Notes under the pieces: model-generated
Databases searched by the model: none
Seen by the model: the letters and a program-made list of their open reading frames with translations, nothing else
What the model was told of the DNA's origin: nothing
From: Rhodothermales bacterium
GTDB taxonomy: Bacteria > Bacteroidota > Rhodothermia > Rhodothermales > JANQRZ01
Direction: 5' to 3'
Length of the DNA: 64,000 nt
Assembly (NCBI GenBank): GCA_039944855.1
Contig: JBDUXZ010000001.1
Coordinates: 2,568-66,567, forward strand
Shown: one piece after another, positions 43,319-61,952 of the stretch
Layout: the number at the start of each line of letters is the position of its first letter
Position numbering within the stretch: position 1 is the first letter of the stretch
Made by a program: the position numbers and the translations under genes

Positions 43319-44146
43319 TCACGTGCTCAGCACCCAGAGCAGGAGGGCGCCGTCGCGGATGATGCCGAACATGAGGTAGGCCAGCACGTAGGCCCCGATG
43401 GTTTTGAACGCCGTGCCCACCCGCCCGCCGAAGAACCCGACGGCGCCGAAGCAGAGGAAGAACAAGCTGAGCATGATGGTGAGCCAGGGCGGGGTCGCCG
43501 AGCCGGTAAACGCCAGTAGCGGGAGCGAGAGAAGGCCGTCGATTAAGTGGTAATGGCCGGTCACGAACAGGGCGTAGACTGAGATCTCGGCGAGGTTGAA
43601 GCCCGAGCGGCGGAAGAACAGCCGCATGAACAGCACGAAAGGGACGTAGAGCAGGATGACCTGGTACGCATACGTCACCCCGATCAGCTTGAGGTTTAGC
43701 TCGACGAACTCGGGGACTTTGTCAGCCGGAAGCAGGCCGAAGAGCGGGGTGCCGTCGCCACGCTCCATCATCTCGATCATCCACTCCTTCATCCCGTCGA
43801 TCTGAAACGAGAAGGCGAAGAGGACGACGGCGGTGCCGAGGACGAAGTAGCTGAGCGGGCTGACGTAGCGCTTGCGCTCGCCCGCGACGTAGCGGCGGCA
43901 GACGCGGCCCGGCGCAACCGTCAACGTGCGCACGGTCAGCCCCAGCCCGCGTTCCATCTTCAGGAAGCGCTCGGCGAACTCGCTCCACAGCGTTCCGAGC
44001 GTGAGGCGGCCATCGAGGTAGTGCTGCCCGCAGCGCTGGCAGTAGTCGCCGAGGCGTTCGGCCTCGCAGTTGGGGCAGGTCTCAGGGCGGAACTGCTCGG
44101 GTTCGTCGCGGAGGACGTCGGGCGGGGAGAGGGGAGCGGTGAGCAT
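43319..44146 (-). CDS. DUF3667-like membrane protein with N-terminal zinc ribbon
   Basis: CPNCEAERLGDYCQRCG is followed by several TM helices. The upstream part of the 614-aa track ORF is a run-on through the next gene's antisense frame. Confidence 0.65.
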   Translation of the reverse strand: MLTAPLSPPDVLRDEPEQFRPETCPNCEAERLGDYCQRCGQHYLDGRLTLGTLWSEFAERFLKMERGLGLTVRTLTVAPGRVCRRYVAGERKRYVSPLSYFVLGTAVVLFAFSFQIDGMKEWMIEMMERGDGTPLFGLLPADKVPEFVELNLKLIGVTYAYQVILLYVPFVLFMRLFFRRSGFNLAEISVYALFVTGHYHLIDGLLSLPLLAFTGSATPPWLTIMLSLFFLCFGAVGFFGGRVGTAFKTIGAYVLAYLMFGIIRDGALLLWVLST

Positions 44147-44211
44147 CGGCGAGGGTGCGGGTGGTGCCCGCGAAGTAACGCACGGCCGACCACGCATGCA
44201 AGCCGGAGGGC

Positions 44212-45126
44212 CTACTTCCGCCGCGCGATCAGCAGGACGCTGCCGACGATGAGCATGGCTCCGGCGAGGCTCTGGAAGTCGGGCACGGTGCCGAAGACGA
44301 GGGCGCCCCACACGAACGCGAAAACGACCTGGAGGTAGCCGACGGAAATCGCCCGGCCCGCTTTTTCGAGGTGGAGCCCGCGCGTCAAGCAGAGCTGCCC
44401 GACGAGCGTCGAGACGCCGGCGCCGAGGAGCCACAGCCATGCCCAGCCGGTCGGCATCACCCAGTTCCCTGCGAAGGGGAGCGCGCCGACGACGCCGATC
44501 CACGAGAGGTAGAAGATGATGACGTCCGGCGCGTCCGTCGCACGCAGCTTGCGGACGATGGTGTACACGAGCCCCGAGAGCATCGACGCCGCGACGACGG
44601 CCGCTACGGCCAATCCGTCGAGCGCGTCGAGTGAGCCGAAGAGGAACGACGGCTCGGAGATGAGCACGACGCCGACGAGGCTCACGGCCATCCCGACAAG
44701 CACGAGCCCCGCCGTACGCTCGCGGAGGACGAACGCCGCCGAGAGCGCGGTCCAGATCGGGGCCATGTAGAACAGCGCCGTCGCGTCGCCGAGCGGGATG
44801 CGGGGGATCGCGAAGTAGAACAGGCTCAGCGCGGCGACGCCGATCACGCCGCGCGCGAACAGTAGCGCCCGGTTGTGGCCGAGCGGGGCGAGGCCGGCGC
44901 GGCGAACGAGGACGTAGATCATCCCTGCCATCAGGACCGAGCGCGCGAACACGATCTCCATCGTCGGGATCGTCTGCCCGGCCAGCTTGACGAACAGCGT
45001 CATCAGGCTGAAGGCCAGCGCGGACCCTGCCATGTAGCGGAGGCCGAGCGGAATGCGGAGGAAGAAGCCGGGGCGAGGCGTAGCGGTAGCGGGCACGGAC
45101 AGGAGATCTCGGGCGAGCGTTGGCAA
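44212..45126 (-). CDS. DMT superfamily transporter (EamA-type, 10 TM)
   Basis: Two EamA-like halves are rich in Gly/Ala/Leu TM helices (ALAFSLMTLFVKLAG...; ...GALVFGTVPDFQSLAGAMLIVGSVLLIARRK). Confidence 0.8.
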   Translation of the reverse strand: MPTLARDLLSVPATATPRPGFFLRIPLGLRYMAGSALAFSLMTLFVKLAGQTIPTMEIVFARSVLMAGMIYVLVRRAGLAPLGHNRALLFARGVIGVAALSLFYFAIPRIPLGDATALFYMAPIWTALSAAFVLRERTAGLVLVGMAVSLVGVVLISEPSFLFGSLDALDGLAVAAVVAASMLSGLVYTIVRKLRATDAPDVIIFYLSWIGVVGALPFAGNWVMPTGWAWLWLLGAGVSTLVGQLCLTRGLHLEKAGRAISVGYLQVVFAFVWGALVFGTVPDFQSLAGAMLIVGSVLLIARRK

Positions 45127-45280
45127 CCGGATTCCCAGCGGCGAGTTCGCCGGCAGGTGTCATTTACGCCCCTCTTCACGCGTCGAGCGAGGGCAAGCTC
45201 AACTGTCTGATGCGGTTGGCTTTGACTCGGGGGCCGCGTACTTTTGGGCCCCGCCGTCTCTCCGCCATCGCACTGCCCGC

Positions 45281-47731
45281 ATGCGCCGTCTCTCCGCTTC
45301 CCTCTGTTTCCTCGTCGTCACGCTCGCCGGCTCTTCTGTCCTCGCGCAGTCCGTAGCGCCCCGCTACAGCGAAGTCCGCATCGCCCTCACGGATCGGGCC
45401 GACCTCCGCGCGATCGCCGAGCGCGTCCCCGGCCTCGGACACGTCGATCTGCAGAAAGAGGGCGGCCGGTTCGTGGCCGTCACGGTGCTAAGCGAGGTAG
45501 ACCTCGCCGACCTCGCCGCGAGCACGTTTCCGTTCGAGGTGTCGGTGCCGGATGTCGCAGCGGCGTACGCTGCCCGTCCGCCGGCGACCGAGGCTGATCG
45601 CGCCGCCGGCCTCGCAGCGAGTCGCGTCGGTGGCGGGTTCGGCTACGGATCGATGGGCGGCTACTACACGTTCGACGAAGTCCTCGGGAAGCTCGACGAG
45701 CTGGCGGCGGACTACCCCGGCCTCATCTCCGAGCGCGTCTCCATCGGGCAGTCGTGGGAGGGGCGCGACCTGTGGATGGTCAAGATCTCCAACGCCCCGA
45801 CCGTCGACGAAGACGAGCCGGAGGTGCTCTACACCGGCCTCCACCACGCCCGCGAGCCGCAGGGCATGACCTCGGTGCTCTATTACATGTACTACCTGCT
45901 GGAGAACTACGGCAGCGACCCCGAGGTGACGTACCTCGTCGACAACCGCGAGCTCTACTTCGTGCCCGTGCTCAATCCCGACGGCTACGTGTACAACGAA
46001 ACGACGAGCCCGAACGGCGGCGGCTTCTGGCGGAAGAACCGCCGGGACAACGGCGGGAACAGCTTCGGCGTCGACCTCAACCGGAACTACGCGTACGAGT
46101 GGGGGCGCGACAACACCGGGTCGAGCCCGAGCCCGGGCGGCGAGACGTACCGCGGGCCGGGGCCGTTCTCCGAGCCCGAGACGCAGGCCATCCGGGACTT
46201 CGTGGAGAGCCGGGAGATCGTGGCCGCGTTCAACTACCACTCGTACAGCAACGTCCTGCTGCACCCGTGGGGCTACGAGGAAGGCGTGTACACCCCCGAC
46301 CAAGACGTCTTCACCACCATCTCCGGCGACATGACGCGGGTCAACGGTTACGAGTTCGGGCAGGCCGCTGACGTGCTCTACCCCGCGAATGGGGACTCCG
46401 ACGACTGGTACTACGGCGAGCAGACGACGAAGGGGAAAGCCTACGCGTGGACGCCCGAGGTAGGGAGGTCGGGCGACGGGTTCTGGCCCGACGAGGACCG
46501 CATCGTCCCGCTCGCCGAGGAGAACCGCGTGGCGAATCTCAGCCTCGCGTGGTTCGCGGGCGCTTACCCCCGCGTGCAGGCCTTTGAGATCGCTGAGACG
46601 CACGCCGCGCCGAACGGCTACGTCGACCCCGGCGAGCCGGCGGCGCTCACCCTCACGCTTCAGAATCTCGGGCTGGCAGGCGTTTCCGACGCACGGGCGC
46701 GGATCGTCAGCACGAACCCCGCGCTCCCCATCGAATCGGGCGCGCTGAGTGCGCCGTTCTCGCTCGGCCCCGAAGGCATGGTGGAGCTCGAAGGGCTCGC
46801 GTTCACGCTCGGGCTCGACGCCGCCGTCGGCTTGCAGGACGGGCTGGCGGTCGAGATGACGTTCGATGGGACGACGCTCGTTCAGCCGCTTGGACCGATC
46901 TCGGTGGGCACGCCGGTCGCGGTGTTCGAGGACGCGGCGGGCTCGATGGCAGCGTGGGATACGGGCACGGGGTGGGGCCTCGCGAGCACGAGCACGTCGC
47001 CGCCGACCTCGTTCGCCGACAGCCCGACGGGGTCGTATGGGAATAATGTCTCGAACGCGCTGACGCTAGCCGAGCCGCTGGACCTCAGCGACGGCGTGAG
47101 CCCGCAGCTACGGTTCAGCGCGCGCTGGGACATCGAGTCCAACTATGACTTCGTGCAGGTCCGTGCTTCGACGAACGGCACGAACTGGACGCCGCTGGCG
47201 GGCCGCTACACCCGGCCCGGCTCCGGCTCCGGCGATCAGACTTCCGGCGAGCCCGGCTACGACGGCACACGGACGCAGTGGGCCGAGGAACTGATGGACC
47301 TGAGCGCCTACGAAGGCGAACCGGAGGTCTACCTCCAGTTCCGGTTGCAATCCGACGGCTCCGTCACCGGCGACGGGTTCTACCTCGACGACCTCGCGGT
47401 GGAGACGTTCTCGAACGGGAGCACGGTGGCGAACGAGACAGGCACGGCTCCAACCCGGCCCGCGCTCTACGATAACTACCCGAACCCGTTCACCAACTCG
47501 ACGCTCATCCCGTTCGACCTCCCCGAGGCGGGTCCAGTGACGCTCACGGTGTACGATCTGCTCGGCCAGCGCGTCCGCGTGCTCACCGATGGAGACCGTG
47601 CTGCAGGTCCGCACAGCGTGAGGTGGGACGGTCGGGACGCCTCGGGTCAGGCCGCGGCGAGCGGGGTTTACGTCTGCACGCTCCGTGCCGCCGGGGCCGT
47701 GTCGACACGCAAGCTCCTCGTGGTCCGGTAG
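45281..47731 (+). CDS. secreted M14 zinc carboxypeptidase with extra C-terminal domains and T9SS CTD
   Basis: Signal peptide MRRLSASLCFLVVTLAGSSVLAQS. The M14 motifs are LYTGLHHAREPQG, NPDGY and FNYHSYSN. The T9SS CTD reads YPNPFTNSTLIPFDLPEAGPVTLTVYDLLGQRVRVL. Confidence 0.85.
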   Translation: MRRLSASLCFLVVTLAGSSVLAQSVAPRYSEVRIALTDRADLRAIAERVPGLGHVDLQKEGGRFVAVTVLSEVDLADLAASTFPFEVSVPDVAAAYAARPPATEADRAAGLAASRVGGGFGYGSMGGYYTFDEVLGKLDELAADYPGLISERVSIGQSWEGRDLWMVKISNAPTVDEDEPEVLYTGLHHAREPQGMTSVLYYMYYLLENYGSDPEVTYLVDNRELYFVPVLNPDGYVYNETTSPNGGGFWRKNRRDNGGNSFGVDLNRNYAYEWGRDNTGSSPSPGGETYRGPGPFSEPETQAIRDFVESREIVAAFNYHSYSNVLLHPWGYEEGVYTPDQDVFTTISGDMTRVNGYEFGQAADVLYPANGDSDDWYYGEQTTKGKAYAWTPEVGRSGDGFWPDEDRIVPLAEENRVANLSLAWFAGAYPRVQAFEIAETHAAPNGYVDPGEPAALTLTLQNLGLAGVSDARARIVSTNPALPIESGALSAPFSLGPEGMVELEGLAFTLGLDAAVGLQDGLAVEMTFDGTTLVQPLGPISVGTPVAVFEDAAGSMAAWDTGTGWGLASTSTSPPTSFADSPTGSYGNNVSNALTLAEPLDLSDGVSPQLRFSARWDIESNYDFVQVRASTNGTNWTPLAGRYTRPGSGSGDQTSGEPGYDGTRTQWAEELMDLSAYEGEPEVYLQFRLQSDGSVTGDGFYLDDLAVETFSNGSTVANETGTAPTRPALYDNYPNPFTNSTLIPFDLPEAGPVTLTVYDLLGQRVRVLTDGDRAAGPHSVRWDGRDASGQAAASGVYVCTLRAAGAVSTRKLLVVR

Positions 47732-47746
47732 CGTCCTCGGCGAGAG

Positions 47747-48244
47747 CTAAGCGTCGCGGCGGATCTCTTCGTACTCCACGTCGATAACCTCGTCCTGCGC
47801 GGGGGGCTGCGCGGGTGCTGCGGCGGGCGGCCACGTCGCGACGTGGACCGTGCCGCCGAGGATTCCTCGCTGGAACCGCTTCATGACGATCCGCTTGATG
47901 ACGGCGCGCGTCGGCGGGAAGAGCCCGAGGAATCCGACGACATCGGTCAGCACGCCGGGCGTCAGCAGGAGGGCGCCGGCGATGAGGATGATGAGGCCGT
48001 CGGTGATCTCGCTGCCCGGCATCGCGCCGGAGGCGACGCGGGCGCGGAATCGGGCGAGGACGGAGAGCCCTTCGCGGTGGGCGAGGAACGAGCCGAGCAG
48101 CGCCGTGGCTGCGATGATCCCGACCGTAGGCCAGAACCCAATCTGCTGCCCGAGCCATACGAGGAGCGCGAGTTCCAGGATCGGGACGAGCGTGAACAGC
48201 AGCAGGAGGCGGCCGAAAAGGGATCGGTTCGGGGCAGGGGGCAT
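47747..48244 (-). CDS. fxsA: FxsA family membrane protein
   Basis: LLLFTLVPILELALLVWLGQQIGFWPTVGIIAATALLGSFLAHREG and LLLTPGVLTDVVGFLGLFPPTR match the FxsA/UPF0716 pattern. Confidence 0.85.
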   Translation of the reverse strand: MPPAPNRSLFGRLLLLFTLVPILELALLVWLGQQIGFWPTVGIIAATALLGSFLAHREGLSVLARFRARVASGAMPGSEITDGLIILIAGALLLTPGVLTDVVGFLGLFPPTRAVIKRIVMKRFQRGILGGTVHVATWPPAAAPAQPPAQDEVIDVEYEEIRRDA

Positions 48245-48478
48245 CGGGGTGAAGATCGAGTCCGCGTCGGGAAGAGGGAGCCGGGGCCGTGTAACGCGCG
48301 GTGCCGCTAAATATTCCGGTGCGACGCGCTTTCACGCGTGCGGCAGGCGAAGGCTGACCCGGCGGCGTCACGTCGGGCGTACGAGAGATCGGCGGTGCTG
48401 GTTGCTGGCCGGAGACGGGGCCGCATGCGTAGTCTTGTCTGCTCGAATAACCGCGTCTCTCCGAATCCTCCTGCTCCT

Positions 48479-49009
48479 ATGACCGACATGAAAGCCCTCT
48501 CCCTCTACGCTATCGACGCCGACCTGCTCGCGCTCGAAGACGCCCTGCTCGCGGCCGGCGGAGAGATCACCGATGAGATCGAGGCCGAGCACAACCACCT
48601 CCTCGATGTGCGGGACCAGAAGGTGGAGGGTTACCTCCGGGTCCTCCGGCGGCTCGAGACGACGGCCGAGGCGATCAAGGTCGAGCGGCAGCGGCTGCAA
48701 GAGGCCGAGCGCAGCATGACGAACGCGGCGCAGTCGCTCAAGGACCGCCTCGCCGCCTCGATGCAGCAGCACGGCGACAGCGAGTACCTCACCTCGCTCG
48801 GCCGCGTCAAGCTGCAGCGCAGCGGCACTGTGCCCGTCGAACTCCTCGTGGACGTGGACGGGCTGCCCGATTCCTACGTCCGTGTCAAGCGCTCGGCCGA
48901 CCTCACGGCGCTGCGGGAGGCGTTGCAGTCAGAGGATGCGGCGGAGCGGGCGGACGCCGAGCGGCTCGCCCAACTCGGCGAGGCCAAGCACTACGTGCGG
49001 ATCTACTGA
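48479..49009 (+). CDS. Siphovirus Gp157-like protein (phage-derived, orphan)
   Basis: The 176-aa coiled-coil protein has layout ...LYAIDADLLALEDALLAAGGEITDEIEAEHNHLL..QKVEGYLRVLRRLE..IKVERQRLQEAE...LPDSYVRVK...HYVRIY, which parallels Gp157 family members as recalled. The ATG at 48479 is preferred. Confidence 0.6.
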   Translation: MTDMKALSLYAIDADLLALEDALLAAGGEITDEIEAEHNHLLDVRDQKVEGYLRVLRRLETTAEAIKVERQRLQEAERSMTNAAQSLKDRLAASMQQHGDSEYLTSLGRVKLQRSGTVPVELLVDVDGLPDSYVRVKRSADLTALREALQSEDAAERADAERLAQLGEAKHYVRIY

Positions 49010-49245
49010 CCCCACCGCGCAACGACGGGGACCTAGATCACGCTGAGACGGCGAGGGGAGAGCCCGTCGCAGACGTGGGCACACCGTCGCGAAAGGGGCT
49101 ATGGACGGGGTAATTCGGAGTTCGAAGCGGACAACACATCGGCATGAATGACGTATGTTTCCGGGCGTCCGGTGTTTGCAAGAGGCCGTGTCGAACCCTC
49201 ACCACGCCCTCCGCTCCACAGCCCAAACCTCGACCTCCACCTGGC

Positions 49246-49914
49246 ATGAGATTCCCCCTCGCCCTTCTCTTCTCGACCGCGCTCCTCCTCTCCGCATGCG
49301 ACGCCGTCGTCGACGTGCCCTCGGATCAGGTGGCGGCATACACCGCGAGCCCGGCTACGGATGCGGCCTCGCGCATGGCGACGGCGCCCACCGCCTCGTG
49401 CCCCTGCTTCTCCCGCTCTTCCCTCGGCGATTCTCCGGTCGTGTCACAGTACCGCGGCGTCGGCGTGCCGGCTCCGTACCTCTTCTTCGACGCCTTCAAC
49501 TACTACGGCCTAGACATGCGTCGGACCGAGGTTCGGGCGACTCTCCACTCGAAAGAGGGCACGTTCGAGGAGGTGGCCGCCGTCTACATCACACCGGACA
49601 ATGACGGCCTGCACCTCATCTGCACGCGGCAGGAACTCGTCCGTCACCCGGCCTCCGGCGACTTGACGTACCGCTATCAGACCCTCTCGCCGACCGTCGA
49701 TGAAGCGGAGGCGTGCCGGCAGGACCTCGCGGGGTTTGTGGCCGAGCGCGAGCCGTGCCAGGGGGGCGCCTGCGGCATCCCGTACTCGGACGCCCAACTC
49801 GACCCGGATTACCCGCCGTACCACGACGGCAACTTCGACACGCCGAAGCCGGTGCTCGACCGGATGCGCCTCGAAGTCGAGCGCGTCGGCCGGATGCTGC
49901 AGGTGCTTTCCTGA
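49246..49914 (+). CDS. Cys-rich hypothetical lipoprotein
   Basis: A lipobox is present (LLFSTALLLSAC). There are further Cys residues in the mature part, and no motif was recognised. Confidence 0.6.
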   Translation: MRFPLALLFSTALLLSACDAVVDVPSDQVAAYTASPATDAASRMATAPTASCPCFSRSSLGDSPVVSQYRGVGVPAPYLFFDAFNYYGLDMRRTEVRATLHSKEGTFEEVAAVYITPDNDGLHLICTRQELVRHPASGDLTYRYQTLSPTVDEAEACRQDLAGFVAEREPCQGGACGIPYSDAQLDPDYPPYHDGNFDTPKPVLDRMRLEVERVGRMLQVLS

Positions 49915-49940
49915 CACGGCTCCTACCTGTTGACGAATTG

Positions 49941-49974
49941 GAAGCGCCTCGGGACACACGTTCCGAGGCGCTTC
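49941..49974 (+). terminator. 12-bp hairpin after the lipoprotein gene
   Basis: GAAGCGCCTCGG-(10 nt loop)-CCGAGGCGCTTC is followed by TCCGTTGTTG. Confidence 0.6.
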
Positions 49975-50079
49975 TCCGTTGTTGTAAACGGCAGGACCAG
50001 AGCCCGACCCGTCGCGTATTTTGGCGACGGACCTGTGCCCGCCCTGTGCTACTGAGTGATCGCTTTTCCCCGAACCTAT

Positions 50080-50709
50080 ATGTACCGACCCCGGCTGCCA
50101 CGACTCCTCATTTTGTGCATTTTCGCAGGTGGATGGGCCGCCGGCACGACGCCTGCCGCCGCTCAATCGGAGTCGAGTCCTGCGGAGGTCGTAACGCGCA
50201 CGCACACGCCTGCCGACGCGCTCTTCATGCGGGGAATGATCCCGCACCACGCGCAGGCCCTCGACATGACGGCGCTCGTGCCCGCCCGGACGACCCGCCG
50301 CGATCTCCTCCTCCTCGCCGAACGGATCGAGGTGGCTCAGGGCGATGAGATCGCGTGGATGCAGCGGTGGTTGCAGGACCGGGACGAAGAAGTGCCGATG
50401 GTAGGCGCCGGCCACGCGCACCATGGTGCCGGGCACCACACCCTCATGCCCGGCATGCTGACGCCCGAGCAACTCGCCCAGCTCGCCGAGGCGTCGGGCC
50501 CCGCGTTCGACCGCCTCTTCTTGGAGTTCATGATCCAGCACCACGAGGGCGCGCTCGTCATGGTCAACGACCTGCTAGCGAGCCCAGGCGCCGCCCAACT
50601 CACGGAGGTCTACCGCTTCGCCTCCGACATCGATGCGGACCAGCGCGCGGACATCCAGCGGATGAAGGCCATGCTCGAGGGCCCGCTCGCCGCGCCGGAC
50701 GAACGATAG
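50080..50709 (+). CDS. DUF305 family protein (four-helix-bundle, metal-associated family)
   Basis: The duplicated DUF305 motif is present (FMRGMIPHHAQALDM and FMIQHHEGALVMV), plus EIAWMQRWL and DIQRMKAML. There is an N-terminal signal/TM segment. Confidence 0.8.
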   Translation: MYRPRLPRLLILCIFAGGWAAGTTPAAAQSESSPAEVVTRTHTPADALFMRGMIPHHAQALDMTALVPARTTRRDLLLLAERIEVAQGDEIAWMQRWLQDRDEEVPMVGAGHAHHGAGHHTLMPGMLTPEQLAQLAEASGPAFDRLFLEFMIQHHEGALVMVNDLLASPGAAQLTEVYRFASDIDADQRADIQRMKAMLEGPLAAPDER

Positions 50710-50754
50710 CCTCACTCCATCCCCCACATCTCCCCACCCCCATCCCCGTCGCCC

Positions 50755-52578
50755 ATGACCGCCCTCCCGATATCCCTCGTGCGCCGCGTCGTTGCTGCGC
50801 TCTGCCTCTGCACCTTTGCGCTCGGCGTCTCTTTATCGGCGAGCGCGCAGACGATGACCGCAGGTGAGAAGGCGCAGGACCCCCGCGTCGGACTCAAAGC
50901 TGGGTGGCAGGACGCGGAATCGGCGGCGATGAATATGGAACTGGTCGCCCACGTCCCGCGCCCCGACGGGTTCTTCAACCCCGACGATCCGGGCGACTTC
51001 AGCTATATGAATTCCGACTTCGCCTTTCGGGGGGACCACCTCTTCCTCGGGAGCTTCCACGGGCTCCAAATCTGGAACATCGCCGATCCGAGCCAGCCTA
51101 CACTGCGCCTCACGCTCCCATGTCCGGGCGGGCAGGGCGACGTTTCCGTCCACGGCGATCTCCTCTTCATGTCGGTCGAAGAGACCCGCGGCCGTCTCGA
51201 CTGCGGCCCGCAGGGCGTCTCGGAGGTGGTCAGCGACGAGCGCTTCCGCGGCGTGCGCGTCTACGACATCAGCGACGTCGACCGCCCGAAGCAGGTCGCG
51301 GCGGTGCAGACGTGCCGCGGCTCGCACACCCACACGCTTGTGCCCGACGTAGAGGATGACTCCCGCGTGTTTATCTACGTCTCCGGCACGAGTCAGGTGA
51401 GGCCGAGCGAGGAGCTGCCCGGCTGCTCGGGCCGGTCGCCCGACGAGGACCCGAACACCTCGCTGTTCCGCATCGAAGTCATCGAAGTGCCGCTCGACGC
51501 TCCTCAGGACGCGCGCATCGTCAGCACGCCGCGCATCTTCGCCGATGCGACCTCCGGTGACATCGCCGGACTCTGGCCGGGCGGCCCCCACGGCGAGGGC
51601 ACGCAGGAGACGAGCACGACGAACCAGTGCCACGACATCACGGTCTATCCCGAGCTCGGCCTCGCGGCGGGCGCGTGCTCCGGCAACGGCATCCTCCTTG
51701 ACATCAGCGACCCCGCGAATCCGAAGCGGATCGACGAGGTGATCGACCCCAACTTTGCCTACTGGCATTCGGCGACGTTCAACAACGACGGCAGCACGGT
51801 GCTCTTCACCGACGAGTGGGGCGGCGGGCTCGCCCCGCGCTGCCGCGATACGGATCGCCCGGAGTGGGGCGCGAACGCGATCTTTACGCTCGAGGACGGG
51901 GAATTGGAACACGCCAGCTATTACAAGCTGCCCGCGCCGCAGACATCGGAGGAGAACTGCGTCGCGCACAACGGCTCGCTCGTTCCGATCCCCGGCCGCG
52001 ACGTGATGGCGCAGGCGTGGTATCAGGGCGGCGTCTCCGTCCTCGACTTCACCGATCCCGCCAACCCGCAGGAGATCGCCTACTTCGACCGGGGCCCGAT
52101 GAATGCGAAGCGGATGGTGATGGCCGGATACTGGTCGGTGTACTGGTATAACGGCTACCTCTACGCCTCCGAGATCGGTCGCGGGCTCGACGTGTTCAAG
52201 CTGACGCCGAGCGAGCACGTGTCGCAGAACGAGATCGACGCGGCGGAGTCGATCCACGACGAAGAGGTGAATCCCCAGCTTCAGACGCGGATCGTGTGGC
52301 CTGCTAGCTTCTCCGTCGCGCGGGCGTACCTCGATCAGCTAGCGCGCCACGAACACCTCACGTCCGAGCAGGTAGCCCGCGTGGGGGGTGAGATCGATCA
52401 GGTGGAGCAACTCGCTGCGCGGTCGAAGGGCGGCGCGGCAGTGGCTCGGCTCGCGAGTACGGCCGCGATGGTCGAGGGCGAAGCCGGGGTCGCTGAGGCG
52501 GGCGCGTCGCCCGAAGCCGCGCGCCGGCTCCGTCTGCTCGCCGCGACGCTACGCGAATTGGGAGGCGCGCTGCCGTAA
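50755..52578 (+). CDS. LVIVD-repeat beta-propeller protein, secreted
   Basis: A signal peptide is followed by repeated motifs of the type G-hydrophobic-x-hydrophobic-x-D-hydrophobic-S/T-D-P-x-x-P (GLQIWNIADPSQP, GVRVYDISDVDRP, GILLDISDPANP, GVSVLDFTDPANP, GLDVFKL). Confidence 0.7.
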   Translation: MTALPISLVRRVVAALCLCTFALGVSLSASAQTMTAGEKAQDPRVGLKAGWQDAESAAMNMELVAHVPRPDGFFNPDDPGDFSYMNSDFAFRGDHLFLGSFHGLQIWNIADPSQPTLRLTLPCPGGQGDVSVHGDLLFMSVEETRGRLDCGPQGVSEVVSDERFRGVRVYDISDVDRPKQVAAVQTCRGSHTHTLVPDVEDDSRVFIYVSGTSQVRPSEELPGCSGRSPDEDPNTSLFRIEVIEVPLDAPQDARIVSTPRIFADATSGDIAGLWPGGPHGEGTQETSTTNQCHDITVYPELGLAAGACSGNGILLDISDPANPKRIDEVIDPNFAYWHSATFNNDGSTVLFTDEWGGGLAPRCRDTDRPEWGANAIFTLEDGELEHASYYKLPAPQTSEENCVAHNGSLVPIPGRDVMAQAWYQGGVSVLDFTDPANPQEIAYFDRGPMNAKRMVMAGYWSVYWYNGYLYASEIGRGLDVFKLTPSEHVSQNEIDAAESIHDEEVNPQLQTRIVWPASFSVARAYLDQLARHEHLTSEQVARVGGEIDQVEQLAARSKGGAAVARLASTAAMVEGEAGVAEAGASPEAARRLRLLAATLRELGGALP

Positions 52579-52707
52579 TGCTGCGTTGGCACATCCGATG
52601 GGGTAGTGTCTCTTCCGCGACATGGGAGCGCTTGTTGTAAGCCGGTGTATGGTGGGTCGACCGCTCTGCGAGTCAATACGCCACCTGCTTTAGAACGATC
52701 CGAACGT

Positions 52708-52923
52708 ATGAAGACCTACGAAGCCCCTCGCTTAATCCCCTACGGCACGGTCGCCCACGTGACGGCGTATGCGGGGGCCCCGGGCACCGGCGACGTTCTC
52801 GTTGATGTCAACGGGACTGTGATTGCTACGGATGCCCTCTCGGGCGCCGATTTCTGTCAGGTCATGGGCTCCAATGGCACCCCCGTGCTTTATCCCATAG
52901 AGACATGCCCGCTGAACCCATAG
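52708..52923 (+). CDS. small ORF (71 aa) with lasso-peptide-type leader motif; putative orphan RiPP precursor
   Basis: MKTYEAPRLIPYGTVAHVTA fits YxxPxLx3Gx5Tx exactly. The ORF has its own hairpin terminator. It lies in a gap of about 600 bp with no other coding sequence, and its third-position GC is lower than in neighbouring genes. Confidence 0.5.
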   Translation: MKTYEAPRLIPYGTVAHVTAYAGAPGTGDVLVDVNGTVIATDALSGADFCQVMGSNGTPVLYPIETCPLNP

Positions 52924-52975
52924 TAGTCTAACAAGCTCGCCTCGAGCACATCAAGAGCGTGACGGATCCCCATGG

Positions 52976-53001
52976 AGGCCGCTTCCAACTGGAAGCGGCC
53001 T
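52976..53001 (+). terminator. rho-independent-type terminator after the small ORF
   Basis: AGGCCGCTTCC-AACT-GGAAGCGGCCT is followed by TCTGTATTTCT. Confidence 0.7.
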
Positions 53002-53181
53002 TCTGTATTTCTCCCTTCATCGTGCAGGTACCGAACCGGGTATGCGGGAGACCATGCGGCTGTACGAGGCAATGCCCGTGGGTGCCCGTGAAAGGGGGGG
53101 GGCTTCTGCACAGGTTCTGGATATCGCTCGATTAAGTTGAGCCACTCACCTGACCTCTGCACCGAGAACGCTTCCCCCGCC

Positions 53182-54300
53182 ATGAGACCACACTCGTACG
53201 TGTTCGCCATCGTAGTTGCCCTGTTCACGCTGGGCGCTTTCTCCGCCTGCGACTCGTCGACCACATCTGGAAACATCGATGACCCGACACTCGGCGAGGT
53301 CGATCCGTCGCTCTTCGTCGACGCCGCGATTGTCGGCGAGATCACCGAGGAGGCCTGCGTGCTCTCCGGCGGGACCGAGACCACGTGCATCCGCTTCTCT
53401 GTGAACACGGACCCGGTGGACCACACCGCCGGGCCGTGGTGTCCGGGGACGATCCAAGCCGACGCCTCTGAGGGCGGGATCTGGCCCGAGGGCGGGATCG
53501 CCTACGAGGTCGACGGCTCATTCATCGAGAACCTCGACACCTTCTATGACGATCCGTTCTGGCAGATGTACGATGACGAGGGCGACGTCTTTATCACGGA
53601 CTCGCAGGAGGACTGCGCCGCTGCGGCGAATCCGAACGTCGGCGAGGAGTACGCCAACTTCTGCGTCGAATGCCAGACGTCGTACCTCGAGCCGGAGGCG
53701 CAGATCACGTACGTCATCCCGAAGCAACCCGTTTCCGTGAATGGTACCGGCCCCACGAGCGACCCGATGGGCGTGGCCTTCAACGGCATCAGCTTCGCCC
53801 CGCCGGCCCCGACCGACCGCATCCTCGGTGCCTACACGCTCGCCCCGTTCGACGACTGCGGCGGCCACGTCAACCTCAACGTTGGCTACCACTACCACGA
53901 GGCGACGGGGTGCGGGACGCAGGTGGCCCAGAGCGACGGGCACGCCCCTATGATCGGCTATGCGCTCGACGGCATCCCGTTCTACGCGCAGATGGGCACC
54001 GACGGCCAGGAGCCGACGGACCTCGACGAATGTCGCGGCCACACGGATGACGAGCGCGGGTACCACTACCACGTGGCTTCGCCCGGGGCGAACCAGTTCG
54101 TCGGCTGCTTTCGCGGCGAGTACGGGTGCGCTCTCGCCGGCGACGGGGCGGGGCTTACGTGCGATGCGACGCAGGGTCCGGGAGGCCCGCCTGGTGGGGG
54201 CCCGCCCGGAGGCCGCCCCGGCCCGCCCGAGGGCAGGACGTCAGCAGACGCTGAGGCGGCGCACACCCACGCGTTCCCGGGGCCTCACGACCACCACTAG
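53182..54300 (+). CDS. YHYH-domain lipoprotein with Pro/Gly linker and His-rich tail
   Basis: Lipobox (LFTLGAFSAC). The motif pair is duplicated: DDCGGHVNLNVGYHYHEATG and DECRGHTDDERGYHYHVAS. The C-terminus reads GPGGPPGGGPPGGRPGPPEG...AAHTHAFPGPHDHH. Confidence 0.75.
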   Translation: MRPHSYVFAIVVALFTLGAFSACDSSTTSGNIDDPTLGEVDPSLFVDAAIVGEITEEACVLSGGTETTCIRFSVNTDPVDHTAGPWCPGTIQADASEGGIWPEGGIAYEVDGSFIENLDTFYDDPFWQMYDDEGDVFITDSQEDCAAAANPNVGEEYANFCVECQTSYLEPEAQITYVIPKQPVSVNGTGPTSDPMGVAFNGISFAPPAPTDRILGAYTLAPFDDCGGHVNLNVGYHYHEATGCGTQVAQSDGHAPMIGYALDGIPFYAQMGTDGQEPTDLDECRGHTDDERGYHYHVASPGANQFVGCFRGEYGCALAGDGAGLTCDATQGPGGPPGGGPPGGRPGPPEGRTSADAEAAHTHAFPGPHDHH

Positions 54301-54394
54301 ATCGCCTGTGCTCTCTGCTGCTGGCCTACCCGCCCGTCGCGCGGTTGCAGGTCGGTGGCGGTATCATGGTGTCCGGACTCCTCCCCCTTCTCCG

Positions 54395-55078
54395 ATGCCC
54401 CGCACCCTCCTCGTTGCCGACGACGAACCGGCCATCCGGGACCTGCTCCGCGACTTCTTCGAGGCGGAGGGGTATACCGTCGTGACGGCCTCGGATGGGA
54501 GGGAGGCCCTCGCCGTGGCTCGCGAGGCCGCGCCCGACCTCGTGCTCCTCGACGTGATGATGCCGTGGGTGGACGGGTTCGACGTCGTCCGCGAGCTCCG
54601 GCGCGAGGGCCAGACGCCGGTCATCCTCCTCACGGCCCGCGTGGAGGAGGCCGACAAGGTGAAGGGGCTCGGGCTCGGGGCCGACGACTACGTCACCAAG
54701 CCGTTCAGCTTCCACGAGGTCGCCGCCCGCGTCCAGGCCGTCCTCCGCCGGAGCGAACCGAAAGGCGTGCTGAGGGGCGGGGACATCGCTCTGGACGTGG
54801 AGGCGTACCGCGTCACCGTCCGAGGCGAATGGGCGGAGCTCACCCCGGCCGAGTTCAATATCCTCCGCGCCCTCATGGCAGCGTCTGGTCGCGCCTTGTC
54901 CCGCCTCGACCTCCTCGAAGTCCTCGGTCGTGACTACGACGGCTCGGAGCGGACCGTCGACTCCCACGTCCGCAACCTCCGCGTCAAGGTTGAGGTCGAC
55001 CCCAAGACTCCGGCGCACATCGAGACCGTGTTCGGGACCGGATACCGGTTCGCGCCACGGGTGGGAGGCGCCCCGTGA
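54395..55078 (+). CDS. OmpR/PhoB-family response regulator
   Basis: The receiver shows LLVADDEPAIRDLL, DLVLLDVMMP, VILLTAR and DYVTKPF. The winged-helix output shows LTPAEFNILRAL and VETVFGTGYRF. Confidence 0.9.
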   Translation: MPRTLLVADDEPAIRDLLRDFFEAEGYTVVTASDGREALAVAREAAPDLVLLDVMMPWVDGFDVVRELRREGQTPVILLTARVEEADKVKGLGLGADDYVTKPFSFHEVAARVQAVLRRSEPKGVLRGGDIALDVEAYRVTVRGEWAELTPAEFNILRALMAASGRALSRLDLLEVLGRDYDGSERTVDSHVRNLRVKVEVDPKTPAHIETVFGTGYRFAPRVGGAP

Positions 55079-56523
55079 CCGGTTCGCTGAGGGGGCGGTG
55101 GACGCTCGTGCTCGTCGGCGTGTGCCTTCTGGAGGCCGCGCTCGTCGCCGTCGCCGTCCGTGTCTCTACGGCGACGGCGTTCGACCGGTTCGTGATCGAG
55201 GAGGCACTGGAGGGGTTCGTCGACGACGTCGAGGCCACGGCGCGGGCCTCGGGGACGATCACGGCCGAGGGGGTCGAGGAGGCCCGCCTGCCTGCCGGGC
55301 CGCCACCCCGACCGGGGACCCTCCCTGACGATCGCAGCCGACCGTCCCGCAGACTCCCGCCCCCTGCCACGCTCGGGCAGCGGATCGCGTTCGGGCTCGC
55401 CGACGCCGAGGGCCGCGTCGTCCGCCCGTTCGACGCGTACGCCGTGGGCGACGTACTCCCGCCCGCCGCGCTCGACGACGGGCGCGCGGTGGTCGTGGAC
55501 GGCCGGCGCGTGGCGACCGCATTCGTCCCACGAGACGCCGCTGACGCCCTCCACGGCCTGCCTGCGTCGAGCCCCGAGGTCCGGTTTGTCGCCTCGTCCA
55601 CGGTCGCGCTCGTCGCCGCGCTGGGGCTCGCGCTCGCCGTTTCGCTCGCCGTCGGCGCGTGGCTGGCCGGCCGGACGACCCGCCCGCTCCGCCGGCTCAC
55701 CGAGGCCGTCCGTGCGATTGCAGCGGGCGACCTCGGCCAAACTGTTTCCGTCGCCAGTGCCGACGAGGTCGGCGCGCTCGCCGACGCCTTCAACACGATG
55801 AGCGCCCGGCTCGCCGAGGCGACGGCGCTCCGCCAGCGGATGACAGCCGACGTGTCGCACGACCTCCGCACACCGGTGACGACGGTGCTCGGGACGCTGG
55901 AACTCATCGAGAGCGGGGCGCTCGCCGCGACGCCCGAGCGGATCCGGACGGCCCGCGTCCAGGCCGAGCGGCTCGCCCGGCTCGTCGAGGCCTTCCACAC
56001 GCTCGCCCTCGCCGACGCGGGTGACCTCCCCGTCCACCTCACGCGCCTCGTACCGGCTGACACGCTCCGGCACGCGGCCGCGGCGTTCGAGGCCCGCGCG
56101 GAGGCGGTAGGCGTCGAACTCGCCGTCGAGGCCGAGGGCGCGCCGGACTTGCGGGCCGACCCCGACCGCCTCGCGCAGATCCTCGACAACCTCGTCTCGA
56201 ATGCGCTCCGGTATACGCCGTCGGGCGGCCACGTCACGCTCTCCGCCCGGCCTGCACCGGACGGCGTCGAGGTTGATGTCATGGACACGGGCTCGGGGAT
56301 CGCGTCGGACGTGCTCCCCCACGTGTTCGAGCGGTCGGTCCGGGCTGACGGCGCGCGGGCAGGCGGGGGCTCAGGGCTCGGCCTCAGCATCGTCCGCTCG
56401 CTCACGGAGGCGATGGGGGGGGCAGTCGGTATCGTGAGCGTGCCCGGGGAGGGCACGACGGTCACCGTCACGCTCCCGGCGTGGGACGGGCCGTCTGCCG
56501 GGGGTGCCTCGGAGCCGCGCTGA
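55075..56523 (+). CDS. sensor histidine kinase (periplasmic loop + HAMP + HisKA + HATPase_c)
   Basis: The GTG start overlaps the regulator's stop (GTGA). Two TM segments flank a loop of about 150 aa. HAMP motif RPLRRLTEAVRAIAAGDL. H-box VSHDLRTPVT. HATPase motifs NLVSNALRYT, DTGSGI and GSGLGLSIVRSL. Confidence 0.9.
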   Translation: MTGSLRGRWTLVLVGVCLLEAALVAVAVRVSTATAFDRFVIEEALEGFVDDVEATARASGTITAEGVEEARLPAGPPPRPGTLPDDRSRPSRRLPPPATLGQRIAFGLADAEGRVVRPFDAYAVGDVLPPAALDDGRAVVVDGRRVATAFVPRDAADALHGLPASSPEVRFVASSTVALVAALGLALAVSLAVGAWLAGRTTRPLRRLTEAVRAIAAGDLGQTVSVASADEVGALADAFNTMSARLAEATALRQRMTADVSHDLRTPVTTVLGTLELIESGALAATPERIRTARVQAERLARLVEAFHTLALADAGDLPVHLTRLVPADTLRHAAAAFEARAEAVGVELAVEAEGAPDLRADPDRLAQILDNLVSNALRYTPSGGHVTLSARPAPDGVEVDVMDTGSGIASDVLPHVFERSVRADGARAGGGSGLGLSIVRSLTEAMGGAVGIVSVPGEGTTVTVTLPAWDGPSAGGASEPR

Positions 56524-56590
56524 GCTCGCGGCTGCACGGGATCTGGACATTTGCTCTCTAGACTGGGGCCGTCCACCCACCGCTCCCCTG

Positions 56591-57550
56591 ATGCCCAAGC
56601 TCACCCTTCTGTTCGTCGCCCTCGCGCTGGCGCTCTCTGCCTGCGATTCCGACAGCACTGACGCGCCCGTCGTCGGGGTCGTCTTCGACCCCGCGCTCCT
56701 CACCGGCTCCAACGTCATCGGCGCGGCCACGCTCGTCGATTGCACGCTGACGGACGGGACCGAGACCCGGTGCTACGAGGTCTCGTTTGGGGCCAACCCG
56801 GTCGAGGACGGGCCGTACTGCCCCCAGACCATCGATGAGGTCGGCGGCGTCGGGTTCTACGACGGCGCGACGAACCCCGGCTTCCAGGCGCTCAAGGCCG
56901 AGCTCTGGGACGCGATGGAGGCCGACGGCTACGACATCGTCGACGCTGATGGCAACGTTAATGTCGCCGATCCGGGTGCGCCCGGAGGCGTGTCGCCAGC
57001 GTGCCTCGAAGCCACGCCCGACGACGGGCTCGTACTCACGTTCACTATCCCGGCCGTCCCGACCCCACTCAGCACGCCCGACGCCATCGGGACGGTCGAA
57101 TTTATAGGCCTCTCGCTCGATGGCATCCCGATCGCGGGCGTCCCACCGTCCGTCGTGGGCATGGGCGCGGGCGACCCGCGGGGCGGCAACATCCCCGCCA
57201 TCGGCGGGTGCGGCGGCCACATCGACCCGCGCGGGTACCTCCACTGGCACCTCGGCCCCGAGGAGGCGAACAACGTCCTCGACGCGAACGGCATCACAGA
57301 TGTCCGTTGCACGGCCGTCCCCCAGAGCACGACCGCACTCATCGGGTTTGCCAAGGACGGCTACCCGATCTACGCGTCGCAGGATGCAGCCGGGATGCCG
57401 AGCGACCTCGACGCCTGTGGCGGCCACACGTCCACGACGGCCGACTACGCCGACGAGGTCTACCACTACCACGTTTCGTCCACCGATGCCCCGAACGTGC
57501 CGTCGTGTGTCGTCGGCGCCTCGGTGCGGCAACCTTTTCAGTTTCAGTGA
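56591..57550 (+). CDS. YHYH-domain lipoprotein (paralogue of 53182-54300)
   Basis: Lipobox (ALALALSAC). The N-terminal region is shared with the paralogue (TDGTETRCYEVSF against SGGTETTCIRFSV). Motifs GGCGGHIDPRGYLHWH and DACGGHTSTTADYADEVYHYHVSS are present. Confidence 0.75.
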   Translation: MPKLTLLFVALALALSACDSDSTDAPVVGVVFDPALLTGSNVIGAATLVDCTLTDGTETRCYEVSFGANPVEDGPYCPQTIDEVGGVGFYDGATNPGFQALKAELWDAMEADGYDIVDADGNVNVADPGAPGGVSPACLEATPDDGLVLTFTIPAVPTPLSTPDAIGTVEFIGLSLDGIPIAGVPPSVVGMGAGDPRGGNIPAIGGCGGHIDPRGYLHWHLGPEEANNVLDANGITDVRCTAVPQSTTALIGFAKDGYPIYASQDAAGMPSDLDACGGHTSTTADYADEVYHYHVSSTDAPNVPSCVVGASVRQPFQFQ

Positions 57551-59995: not shown

Positions 59996-60030
59996 AAGAG
60001 GCTTCAGGTCAGAGTGACCTGAAGCCTCTT
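59996..60030 (-). terminator. 16-bp perfect hairpin immediately downstream of tRNA-Lys
   Basis: AAGAGGCTTCAGGTCA-GAG-TGACCTGAAGCCTCTT is followed on the minus strand by TGCGTTTGGG. Confidence 0.65.
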
Positions 60031-60033: not shown

Positions 60034-60109
<76 letters not shown>

Positions 60110-60130
60110 GCTTGGAGTGCCCAAAATAAC

Positions 60131-60163
60131 AACGGGAACCGGAATGCAGTTCCGGCCCCCGTT
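60131..60163 (-). terminator. compound hairpin plus T-tract after the TerB-like gene
   Basis: AACGGG pairs with CCCGTT and CCGGAA pairs with TTCCGG. On the minus strand the hairpin is followed by GTTATTTTGG. Confidence 0.6.
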
Positions 60164-60188
60164 GAAGCGTGGTTGAATAGCGCTGCGC

Positions 60189-60668
60189 TCAGCCCAATTC
60201 GTCCGGGCAGGCGAGGGGGCGGACGATCGCATCGCCTTTGCCGTGCTCGCGGAGGTGGTAGGCGTACGTGTGCATCGTAGCGATGTCTTCGGGGGAGATC
60301 CCGAGCTCCTCGCGCACGGCCTCGAGCGTCTGCGGCTCGCCGGGCTCGATCTCGCCATCGGCGAGGGCGACGTCGACGAGGTTGAGCATCAGCCCGCGGC
60401 GGATCGACTCATCGGTGTCCTTGAGGAGGTCGAGGCAGGCGCGGAGGGACGGGGGAGAGATGCTGAGGGCGAACGCGCGCTGGCGGGCGTCCTCGGAGAG
60501 CCCCTCGAGCTGGAGCGATTCGAGGATCTGGTCGGACTCGCGCTCGTCGATGGTATCGTCGGCGGCGGCGAGGGCGAAGAGGGCGCCGTAGAAGGCGAGC
60601 CGTTGTCGCTCGGAAAGGCCCGAGAGGTCGAGCACGGAGGGAGCGGGGGGAAGTTGGGTGGCAGCCAT
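60189..60668 (-). CDS. TerB-like (tellurite-resistance TerB fold) protein
   Basis: Two copies of the acidic TerB-type motif are present (LAAADDTIDERE and VALADGEIEPGE) in a helical protein of about 160 aa. Confidence 0.55.
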   Translation of the reverse strand: MAATQLPPAPSVLDLSGLSERQRLAFYGALFALAAADDTIDERESDQILESLQLEGLSEDARQRAFALSISPPSLRACLDLLKDTDESIRRGLMLNLVDVALADGEIEPGEPQTLEAVREELGISPEDIATMHTYAYHLREHGKGDAIVRPLACPDELG

Positions 60669-60701
60669 ATGCGGAGATTGGAGTCGGTCGGAGGGGGACG
60701 G

Positions 60702-61877
60702 TTAAGATACGGACGTTGACGCGCGATCCGTTGCGGCGGCTTCGCGGTCGAAGAGGTCGAGGAGCGGGCGGCGACGCCACGCCGGGCTGTACTTCCGCAT
60801 CCAGCGGCGGTCGACGGTGTGCTTGAGGCGGAGAATCGGGCCGCCGCGCAGCCAGAGCCGACCGGAGACCCAGAGGCCCTCGGGCTCTCCGGTCGAGAGG
60901 ATGAGCGGCGTGAGTGGGTAGGGCGTGAACGCGCTGAGATCGAGGTCGCCGAGGGAGCGATCCGCCAACAACGCATCGAGCGCGCGGGCGATGTTGTCGC
61001 GGAGCAGCGGCCCCTGTTTGACGGCGTTGACGCCAATCTTCTTCAAGTCGGGATAGCTGTCGAGCGCCGCGCAGTCGCCCGCCGCGAAGAGCCACGGGGC
61101 CGAGGGGCACTGCATCGTGTCGGCGACGCGGAGGAAGCCGGCGTCGTCCACGGGCAACCCAGACTCGCGGAAGAGGGGCGGACCTGCCGTGCCGGTCGCC
61201 CACAGCACGCGGTCGGCCGCGATGCGGGTGCCGTCGGCGAGGACGACCTCGCCGTTCTCCGCCGCTTCGACGCGCGTCGAGAGGGTGACGGTGACGCCAC
61301 GCTGTTCCAACAGGCGAAGGGCTTCGCGCTGCATCCCGGCCGGGACGTTCGGTAGCAACGAATCGGCCGGTTCGAAGAGGGTCAGCCGGAGGGCGTCGGG
61401 CCGAGTGGCGCCGACGCGCGCGCTGACGTTGAGTGCGACTTCGACGCCCGCCGCTCCGCCGCCCACAATCGCGAGGTGCTGCGTTCCGCTTTCGCGGTCG
61501 AGGGCGTCGCGGACGAACCGTTCGAGCGCTTCGATGTGGTGGAGCGGCTTCGTTGGAATCGCGTCGCCGGCCGCGTCCCGCTTCGGGTTCACGCCGCCGA
61601 CGTCGAGCGCGGCGAGGTCGCACGGCAGCGTTTCGCCGGAGGCGAGCACGACGCCCGGCGGGTCGAGCGAGAGGCCTGTCACCCGGCTCTGCGTGAACGC
61701 CACGCCGGACGCGGCGCACAGCCGACGGAGATCGACCCGCACCTGCTCCGACGCGTAGACGCCGCCGAGGTGCTCGGGCACCATCCCCGAGTAGAACAGC
61801 GCGTCCGACTCATCGACGAGCGTGATGGCGACGCCGCGTGCCGTCCACGTCCCGGCGTGCTTCACGAGCGGCAGCAT
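60702..61877 (-). CDS. FAD/NAD(P)-dependent pyridine-nucleotide-disulfide oxidoreductase family protein (annotated start probably too short)
   Basis: A second Rossmann motif is present (LAIVGGGAAGVEVA), plus FAAGDCA. The first dinucleotide-binding motif (HLVLVGGGHA) is encoded in frame upstream of the first ATG, between 61878 and 61952, where no ATG/GTG/TTG exists. Confidence 0.7.
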   Translation of the reverse strand: MLPLVKHAGTWTARGVAITLVDESDALFYSGMVPEHLGGVYASEQVRVDLRRLCAASGVAFTQSRVTGLSLDPPGVVLASGETLPCDLAALDVGGVNPKRDAAGDAIPTKPLHHIEALERFVRDALDRESGTQHLAIVGGGAAGVEVALNVSARVGATRPDALRLTLFEPADSLLPNVPAGMQREALRLLEQRGVTVTLSTRVEAAENGEVVLADGTRIAADRVLWATGTAGPPLFRESGLPVDDAGFLRVADTMQCPSAPWLFAAGDCAALDSYPDLKKIGVNAVKQGPLLRDNIARALDALLADRSLGDLDLSAFTPYPLTPLILSTGEPEGLWVSGRLWLRGGPILRLKHTVDRRWMRKYSPAWRRRPLLDLFDREAAATDRASTSVS

Positions 61878-61952
61878 CGCGTGGCCCCCGCCGACGAGGA
61901 CGAGGTGGGGCGAGCGGCTGCGTATGGCGGTGCGGGGGTCGATGGTGCGGGG

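Follow-up and report, generated by a model that had tools for sequence, protein, structure and literature searches.

A candidate lasso peptide precursor away from maturation genes in a Rhodothermales genome, with relatives in and outside lasso clusters

In lasso leaders the YxxPxL motif is described as "always" occupying positions -17 to -12, with Thr (rarely Ile or Val) at -2 (PMC10368454), and characterised lasso cores span 13-33 amino acids (aa), the largest peptide named in a 2026 review being pandonodin with 33 aa (PMC13352647). In class IV lasso peptides (pandonodin, felipeptins) one disulfide links two points of the tail (PMC13352647), and in clusters of the paeninodin/pseudomycoidin type, kinase and nucleotidyltransferase enzymes phosphorylate and glycosylate the peptide (PMC9266682). 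Here we analyse a 71-codon open reading frame (ORF) at position 52,708 of a 64,000-nucleotide stretch of a Rhodothermales bacterium genome (contig JBDUXZ010000001.1), the whole of which is called the window below. A sequence-only reading of the window had noted that this ORF fits the lasso leader motif and lies apart from maturation enzymes, and had proposed that it could be a remote or orphan precursor, a lasso-type leader used by a different pathway, or a coincidence. On the evidence given here, we hold it fairly probable that the ORF is a genuine, divergent lasso precursor located away from the maturation genes and matured in trans.

The precursor and its relatives

Translation of the ORF from its ATG start on the forward strand gives MKTYEAPRLIPYGTVAHVTAYAGAPGTGDVLVDVNGTVIATDALSGADFCQVMGSNGTPVLYPIETCPLNP. 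Residues Y4, P7, L9, G13 and T19 fit YxxPxLx3Gx5Tx, and with a cut after A20, the predicted cleavage site, the first three of these fall at -17, -14 and -12 and T19 at -2, which is the exact motif in canonical register that the sequence-only reading had described. An Asp or Glu acceptor at core position 7-9 is present as Asp9, with a Gly before it; both this Asp and the Thr at -2 are as that reading had listed them. From the known lasso mechanism (PMC13352647), the isopeptide bond of the ring is predicted to join the amine of Tyr1 to the side chain of Asp9. Exactly two Cys are encoded, both in the tail (core Cys30 and Cys47, codons 52855-52857 and 52906-52908), for which a tail-tail disulfide is predicted, and the product ends in ...CPLNP. 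The predicted mature product has 51 residues and is acidic (pI about 4); with H2O and 2 H lost, its monoisotopic mass would be 5059.39 Da. When compared with NF033521, the NCBIfam lasso leader model, the ORF scored 19.2 bits against a cut-off of 19 (E = 8.8e-4), a borderline pass in a check that had been proposed from the sequence; its score for NF033528 (lasso_cyano) was 22.2 bits, under the cut-off of 33. The coordinates of these parts, and of the features around them, are collected in Table 1.

Table 1. Features of the ORF and its surroundings, in window positions
Feature	Position	Strand	Basis
Lasso-family precursor gene, 71 codons plus stop	52708..52923	+	ORF, translation, NF033521, homologues
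Leader peptide, residues 1-20, MKTYEAPRLIPYGTVAHVTA	52708..52767	+	YxxPxL at -17 to -12, Gly at -8, Thr at -2
Predicted 9-residue macrolactam ring, core Y1-A-G-A-P-G-T-G-D9	52768..52794	+	Family conservation and lasso mechanism
Predicted loop and tail, core residues 10-51	52795..52920	+	D13, G16, S25, Cys30 and Cys47 of the core
Intrinsic-terminator-like hairpin, 13 bp stem, 4 nt loop, T-rich tail	52974..53013	+	Folding
Upstream intergenic region, 129 nt, 57% GC	52579..52707	+	Sequence scan
7.5 kb segment missing from L035	52559..60033		blastn of the window against L035
tRNA-Lys(CTT), 3' end facing the variable segment	60034..60109	-	In L035 directly after the LVIVD-like gene

An exhaustive phmmer search over 1.84 billion representatives returned four small homologues of 63-79 aa (E = 5e-6 to 8e-4), and a five-member profile that included the query recovered 20 other small proteins of 57-112 aa (E = 3e-28 to 5e-13); the query, itself part of this profile, matched it at E = 2.6e-26. 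All 21 sequences of the alignment termed A2, query included, match NF033521 and NF033528 at E <=0.01, the curated cut-offs being unchecked for individual members. Other routes gave nothing further: a word-indexed protein search with the ORF product returned only the self-match, a back-translated scan of species genomes with this single product found no relative, and an exact look-up of the ORF sequence among contigs found no match.

With copies from genomic loci added to the proteins, the family comprises 49 distinct relatives and the query. Seventeen positions show at least 90% conservation in the relatives, and the ORF retains every one of them: M1, K2, Y4, P7, Y12, G13, A16, T19, A20, G23, T27, G28, D29, D33, G36, S45 and C50, the last four of which lie beyond the predicted ring. 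Leader residues Y4, P7, G13, A16 and T19 are invariant across the family, core G3, G8 and D9 occur in 49 of 49 relatives and core T7 in 46, and two Cys are found in the tail of 47. The Y, P, G and T positions, four of the five (Y, P, L, G and T) that the proposed homologue check was to compare, are thus invariant in the 49 relatives. The query leaves the family majority at positions 11, 14, 26 and 42 and in the CPT motif. Cores of the relatives measure 37-49 aa (median 42) and that of the query 51 aa; the relatives' cores begin with Thr, Ile or Val, that of the query with Tyr, and the C-terminal residue in the family is mostly P, L, N or R. Of the traits that had been called atypical, the long core does lie outside the characterised range, but a long core, a residue 1 other than Gly and two Cys are all common to the family. 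As predicted from these sequences, the family peptides are longer than any characterised lasso peptide.

Core positions 13-18 (query D33-V38; 52804-52821) form a conserved tail motif, D-[VL]-[DN]-G-[ND]-[VI], which we take to resemble calcium-binding loops of the DxDG type.

Maturation clusters, dispersed copies and metagenome evidence

Members of every subfamily examined are encoded in clusters with a common gene order, seen at L001, L003, L029, L030, L031, L033, L036 and L037 (locus handles of this study). The order runs from a Wzz/GNVR kinase through a 170-aa ORF, Glycos_transf_4, PqqD, Transglut_core3 and an Asn-synthase-like gene to one to three precursors, and continues with a protein of about 300 aa, an ABC exporter, (two ORFs), an Exo_endo_phos gene and NTP_transf_5. 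The B2 protein of the clusters reaches 90.7 bits for NF033537, whose cut-off is 33, and the cyclase reaches 768 bits for NF033535, "lasso peptide isopeptide bond-forming cyclase", whose cut-off is 525; the top matches of the PqqD protein are lasso chaperone models. The protein of about 300 aa reached 31.8 bits for TIGR04352, whose cut-off is 200 (E = 8e-8), and has weak matches to Pfam Hpr_kinase_C and ScmC. In the subfamily closest to the query, P0012 (L036) shares the ...TCPLN ending and is located between the cyclase and the kinase-like gene. P0011 (L037), with a 49-aa core and a long Cys-Cys loop, is encoded in a complete cluster, so that very long cores are encoded beside lasso machinery, as presumed substrates.

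Several further observations concern the clusters themselves. In L004, L005, L007, L010, L028, L029, L030 and L031, a short hairpin lies about 25-45 nt before the ATG of the cluster precursor, between the cyclase and the first precursor, and is followed by a CCTTCAC-like box. Compensatory changes occur in 4 of its 7 predicted pairs, each in at least one sequence, and the consensus energy is weak (-2.8 kcal/mol); this hairpin might set the ratio of precursor to enzyme expression. The cyclase gene of L003 (6258-8350) and the LVIVD-like gene of L035 (14000-15840) are both split by frameshifts, and as both loci come from the same long-read assembly in the European Nucleotide Archive, these are probably assembly indels, not pseudogenes. 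Sample ERZ25039483 of that archive (L003, L029, L030, L037, L035) holds four distinct lasso clusters on separate contigs, together with the window's close relative.

Precursor copies were also found outside clusters. A scan of one genome for each of 185,579 species with a degenerate DNA pattern, designed by hand for [YH]G[DT][VI]AxxT[AG]xxGxxxxGDxxx[DN]xxG, gave 25 loci, all of them in six metagenome-assembled genomes (MAGs) of Rhodothermales/Bacteroidota, which hold 8, 7, 5, 4, 2 and 1 copies. By tblastn with the cluster enzymes, five of these MAGs have one cluster locus each, and the 8 kb blocks around their remaining copies contain no B gene (leader-binding protein or protease) and no C gene (cyclase); for one dispersed copy, none was present in a full 10 kb on either side. 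The sixth MAG carries its single copy on a 3.2 kb contig. On a 3.5 Mb chromosome, eight copies lie at seven loci, at about 1.18, 1.19, 1.59, 2.12, 2.69 (two copies), 3.00 and 3.04 Mb, and it is the copy at 3.04 Mb that belongs to the cluster locus. The dispersed copies are intact, with pairwise dN/dS of 0.15-0.69, similar for the dispersed and cluster-linked copies compared. The copies agree in the leader and at the start of the core and vary towards the C-terminus. Within genomes in which one cluster was found, some leaders have D and others T at position 14, and position 11 varies; these are the two leader positions at which the query leaves the majority. One maturation cluster with several dispersed precursor genes that differ in their tails is, at the level of genes, a habit seen in Rhodothermales.

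Upstream of the dispersed copies, one region is common to five genomes (L019, L024, L009, L013, L020). In addition, TAnnTTTG-like boxes (for example GTATATTTGC) lie 45-65 nt before the ATG of dispersed copies L023, L006, L012, L014 and L008, and resemble the -7 promoter element of Bacteroidota.

In order to look for a cluster in the organism that carries the window, four metagenome runs from one study (X1-X4) were compared with the Rhodothermales cluster loci at a minimum of 80% identity. Word depth of the window was about 650 in X1, 16 in X2, 4-8 in X3 and 3-5 in X4, and the ORF sequence is identical across all four. An X2 contig of 10,528 bp (depth 22.4) shows a Glycos_transf_4 match followed 1.9 kb on by the start of a cyclase, the expected spacing, and a second X2 contig, of 7,522 bp and likewise at depth 22.4, matches NTP_transf_5, the Exo_endo_phos gene and, in three stretches, the ABC gene, all in collinear order. 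In X3, one contig has a 30-nt loose end that differs from the B2 gene of L003, L029 and L030 at 2 positions, and the cluster tags from these runs are nearest to the same three loci, at 2-6 mismatches per 30 nt. Across X1 to X4, the cluster-like contigs had depths of about 575-1020, 22, 8-10 and 4-6, so that the ratio of their depth to that of the window stayed at about 1.0-2.5 (1.4 in X2) over a roughly 150-fold range of abundance. Unrelated contigs that match a short ABC motif had different depth profiles (55 and 103 in X3 and X4). As the depth of the cluster-like contigs tracks that of the window, a cognate cluster is probably located elsewhere in the same genome, and this covariation points to a homologous cluster that is probably present in the same population. 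A peptide read from one 30-nt tag of a run contig was not seen in 12 candidate cyclases, the exact 30-nt tag was missing from the JGI metagenomes, and no paralogue of the ORF at >=80% DNA identity was found in the four runs.

Genomic setting and competing explanations

The window itself holds no maturation genes, as the sequence-only reading had stated for the whole 64 kb. A Pfam scan of about 57 candidate ORFs spanning the window found no PF00733, PF05402 or PF13471 domain, and tblastn with the maturation enzymes of the family clusters gave nothing significant there, the best enzyme match having E = 0.016 over 33 aa. The same search with cluster-encoded precursors hit a single site, from 52708 onward (E = 1e-9 to 3e-12). 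Both YHYH neighbours of the ORF that had been named from the sequence were confirmed by Pfam; the LVIVD propeller named alongside them was below threshold (E = 0.011, 15.5 bits against 20.2). The suggestion that homologues might co-occur with YHYH or LVIVD genes failed, as the window neighbours (DUF305, LVIVD-like, YHYH and a two-component pair) never recur beside other family members, where only generic tail domains of the type IX secretion system (T9SS) match. A functional tie of the ORF to its neighbours is rejected on this ground. The grouping at 50056-57550 of DUF305, an LVIVD-like beta-propeller candidate, two YHYH genes and the two-component pair could be a neighbourhood for metal homeostasis or sensing, which is only a guess from domain names. 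Farther off, 20045-26986 encodes an 1868-aa histidine kinase with many PAS domains and one GAF domain, followed by a kinase with an ethylene-receptor-like N-terminal domain (ETR1_N, E = 8e-38). The T9SS sorting domains and the 69% G+C of the window, taken with where its homologues occur, suggest an origin in Rhodothermales.

Downstream of the ORF, a hairpin of 13 pairs, of which 9 are G-C, occupies 52974-53003, with TGTATTTCTC after it; the hairpin's folding energy of -29 kcal/mol (z = -4.4) was equalled in 0 of 200 shuffled sequences, in agreement with the terminator that had been read from the letters. Logan contigs of runs X2 and X3 end at this inverted repeat. The gap of about 600 bp around the ORF was likewise found to be free of other coding sequence, from 52579 to 53136. 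The ORF's G+C content at third codon positions (GC3), which had been called lower than that of its neighbours, is so relative to most genes within about 7 kb (0.73 against 0.82-0.90), but three ORFs of the same segment are similarly low: h320, which has no Pfam match (0.75), CarbReg (0.82) and YceI (0.70).

That segment is variable. Against L035, a close relative, blastn found synteny at 35239-52558 and 60036-62982 with 76-91% identity and no match between them; the 7.5 kb missing from L035 contains the ORF, the two YHYH genes, an OmpR-type response regulator, a histidine kinase, two other ORFs and YceI. The presence of the ORF thus varies between strains or species. No integrase was found in the segment by Pfam and no att-like direct repeat was found there. 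A perfect 16 bp inverted repeat stands beside the tRNA-Lys gene, at 59996-60030. In a second indel, window positions 45201-47746 are absent from L035, and 45053-47731 encodes an M14 carboxypeptidase with a MAM-like domain and a T9SS-type C-terminal tail that is absent from that relative.

A number of these results weigh against the ORF being a working precursor matured in trans. The close relative L035 lacks it; the 52 kb upstream and the 11 kb downstream of it are free of B and C genes; and its 51-aa core exceeds the 13-33 aa of characterised lasso peptides. No homologue comes closer than 52% identity, and when 15 billion proteins are clustered at 90% identity it stands alone. The region 52579-52707 contains no recognisable (sigma-70-type) promoter and no Shine-Dalgarno sequence, the AGGAGG/AGAGGT box that many relatives have before the ATG being missing. 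In GC3 the ORF ranks below every copy from a genome of comparable G+C (range 0.75-0.95), and four RNA runs that share the species label contained zero reads from this organism. The link between window and cluster consists of co-varying depth only, and a co-abundant sister population would look alike; the cyclase evidence in the X runs amounts to one 65-nt match plus collinearity.

Some of these points fit a different account, in which the ORF is a paralogue left stranded or in decay, whose expression or maturation has ceased, for example because it arrived with the 7.5 kb segment and is mismatched to the enzymes of its host. The absence from L035 of the ORF and its tRNA-Lys-adjacent segment, the lowest GC3, the lack of a Shine-Dalgarno-like box or promoter match, the singleton status with no homologue above 52% identity, and the departures at positions 11, 14, 26 and 42 and in the CPT motif all speak for it. 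Yet the reading frame is intact, the terminator is strong and dedicated, the same sequence occurs in four metagenome runs, and none of the 17 constrained positions has been lost, both Cys and the Gly-Asp of the ring included, a retention that is unexpected under neutral decay at about 50% divergence. We regard decay as unlikely, if still worth serious attention.

It is considerably less plausible that the ORF encodes a functional small peptide whose lasso-type leader serves another maturation or export pathway, or that is left unmodified, perhaps tied to the YHYH and two-component genes. The position of the ORF at the edge of a segment seemingly devoted to metal handling and sensing, with no lasso enzymes nearby, would suit such a role. 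However, no window neighbour recurs beside other family members, and no conserved co-occurrence with a non-lasso enzyme was seen across genomes; every subfamily occurs in canonical lasso clusters, and the conserved positions are exactly those for binding by the RiPP recognition element (RRE), cleavage and ring closure (RiPP, ribosomally synthesised and post-translationally modified peptide). As cluster-linked relatives always stand beside canonical PqqD, B2 and cyclase genes, a different pathway, the second proposal of the sequence-only reading, is without support. A chance open frame that happens to match the motif, which long spurious ORFs in a 69% G+C genome and the shortness of this one might suggest, is hardly credible given the profile match (E = 2.6e-26, query in the profile), the single window site hit by cluster precursors and the presence of all conserved positions, a conserved family with invariant motif positions excluding coincidence.

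The reading as a remote precursor matured in trans is the one that gained support, since it fits both the dispersed copies in related genomes and the cluster at matching depth in the same metagenomes. In this scheme, which is drawn by homology, the leader, with its YxxPxL, Gly and Thr at -2, would be bound by the PqqD-like B1 protein from a cluster elsewhere in the genome, and the B2 cysteine protease would cut after Ala20. The Asn-synthetase-like cyclase would then adenylate Asp29 (core D9) and join it to the amine of Tyr21, closing a 9-residue ring around the tail, and Cys50 would pair with Cys67 in a tail disulfide of the class IV type. The HPr-kinase-like and nucleotidyltransferase-like enzymes of the cluster may decorate the peptide, possibly at the conserved Ser45, and the cluster ABC exporter would secrete the product. 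A wider proposal, which we put forward tentatively and as a possibility rather than an expectation, is a Rhodothermales "lasso library", in which one B1/B2/C/kinase/exporter cluster matures up to eight scattered precursors into products of 37-51 residues with a conserved leader and 9-residue ring and a disulfide-closed, variable tail of about 30-40 residues. The window ORF would be its longest and most divergent member, on a strain-variable segment.

Comparison with known systems

The ORF is a lasso-family precursor of a known general kind, one that standard NCBI annotation would probably already name a lasso leader-containing protein. With lasso precursors of the split B1/B2 type it shares the leader register, Thr at -2 and Asp9, and its relatives are flanked by PqqD, B2, cyclase and ABC exporter genes; it differs in its 51-aa core, in Tyr instead of the usual Gly as residue 1, and in being unclustered. 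A likeness to cyanobacterial lasso systems is also evident, as the cluster cyclases that pass NF033535 are 43-48% identical to cyanobacterial cyclases and the 21 of 21 aligned precursors that match NF033528 at E <=0.01 do so at best with 5e-10. Unlike those systems, the query remains under the NF033528 cut-off (22.2 against 33 bits) and the hosts are Rhodothermales (Bacteroidota).

The family clusters resemble those of the paeninodin/pseudomycoidin type in having a putative HprK-related gene right after the precursor and an NTP_transf_5 gene; the window contains neither. Paeninodin-type kinases modify a conserved C-terminal Ser, whereas the family has no C-terminal Ser, ends mostly in Pro and has a conserved internal Ser; the ORF product, ending in ...CPLNP, lacks the C-terminal Ser as well. 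The family kinase match is far below the curated cut-offs, and the family clusters also contain a gene of the endonuclease/exonuclease/phosphatase family. The two tail Cys of the query and of 47 of 49 members, with their predicted disulfide, recall class IV. Pandonodin, with the longest known tail, has 33 aa in total, as against 42 aa after the ring here, where the Cys-Cys loop has 17 residues.

The literature searched, which did not extend to subscription-only papers, yielded neither a paper that links lasso peptides with Rhodothermales nor any account of dispersed lasso precursors, and the combination of very long cores with several dispersed, conserved precursor genes per genome seems to be undescribed. 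Lasso genome-mining tools look beside enzymes, so that dispersed copies would be missed and the product repertoire of these bacteria undercounted. If maturation in trans is true, the cyclase would accept many tails on cores of 37-51 residues and would be a useful scaffold-tolerant enzyme.

Finally, a parallel in gene arrangement comes from another class of RiPP. In the prochlorosins, one lanthipeptide synthetase, ProcM, serves many dispersed precursor genes (about 30). The genomes of the relatives are alike in combining one maturation locus with scattered precursors that have a conserved leader and a variable C-terminal part, an arrangement of several unlinked precursors and one maturation locus per genome found in five related MAGs only. 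They are unlike the prochlorosins in RiPP class and chemistry and in their far smaller number (2-8 copies against about 30). If true, the trans maturation proposed here would be the lasso counterpart of the prochlorosin logic of one enzyme and many substrates.

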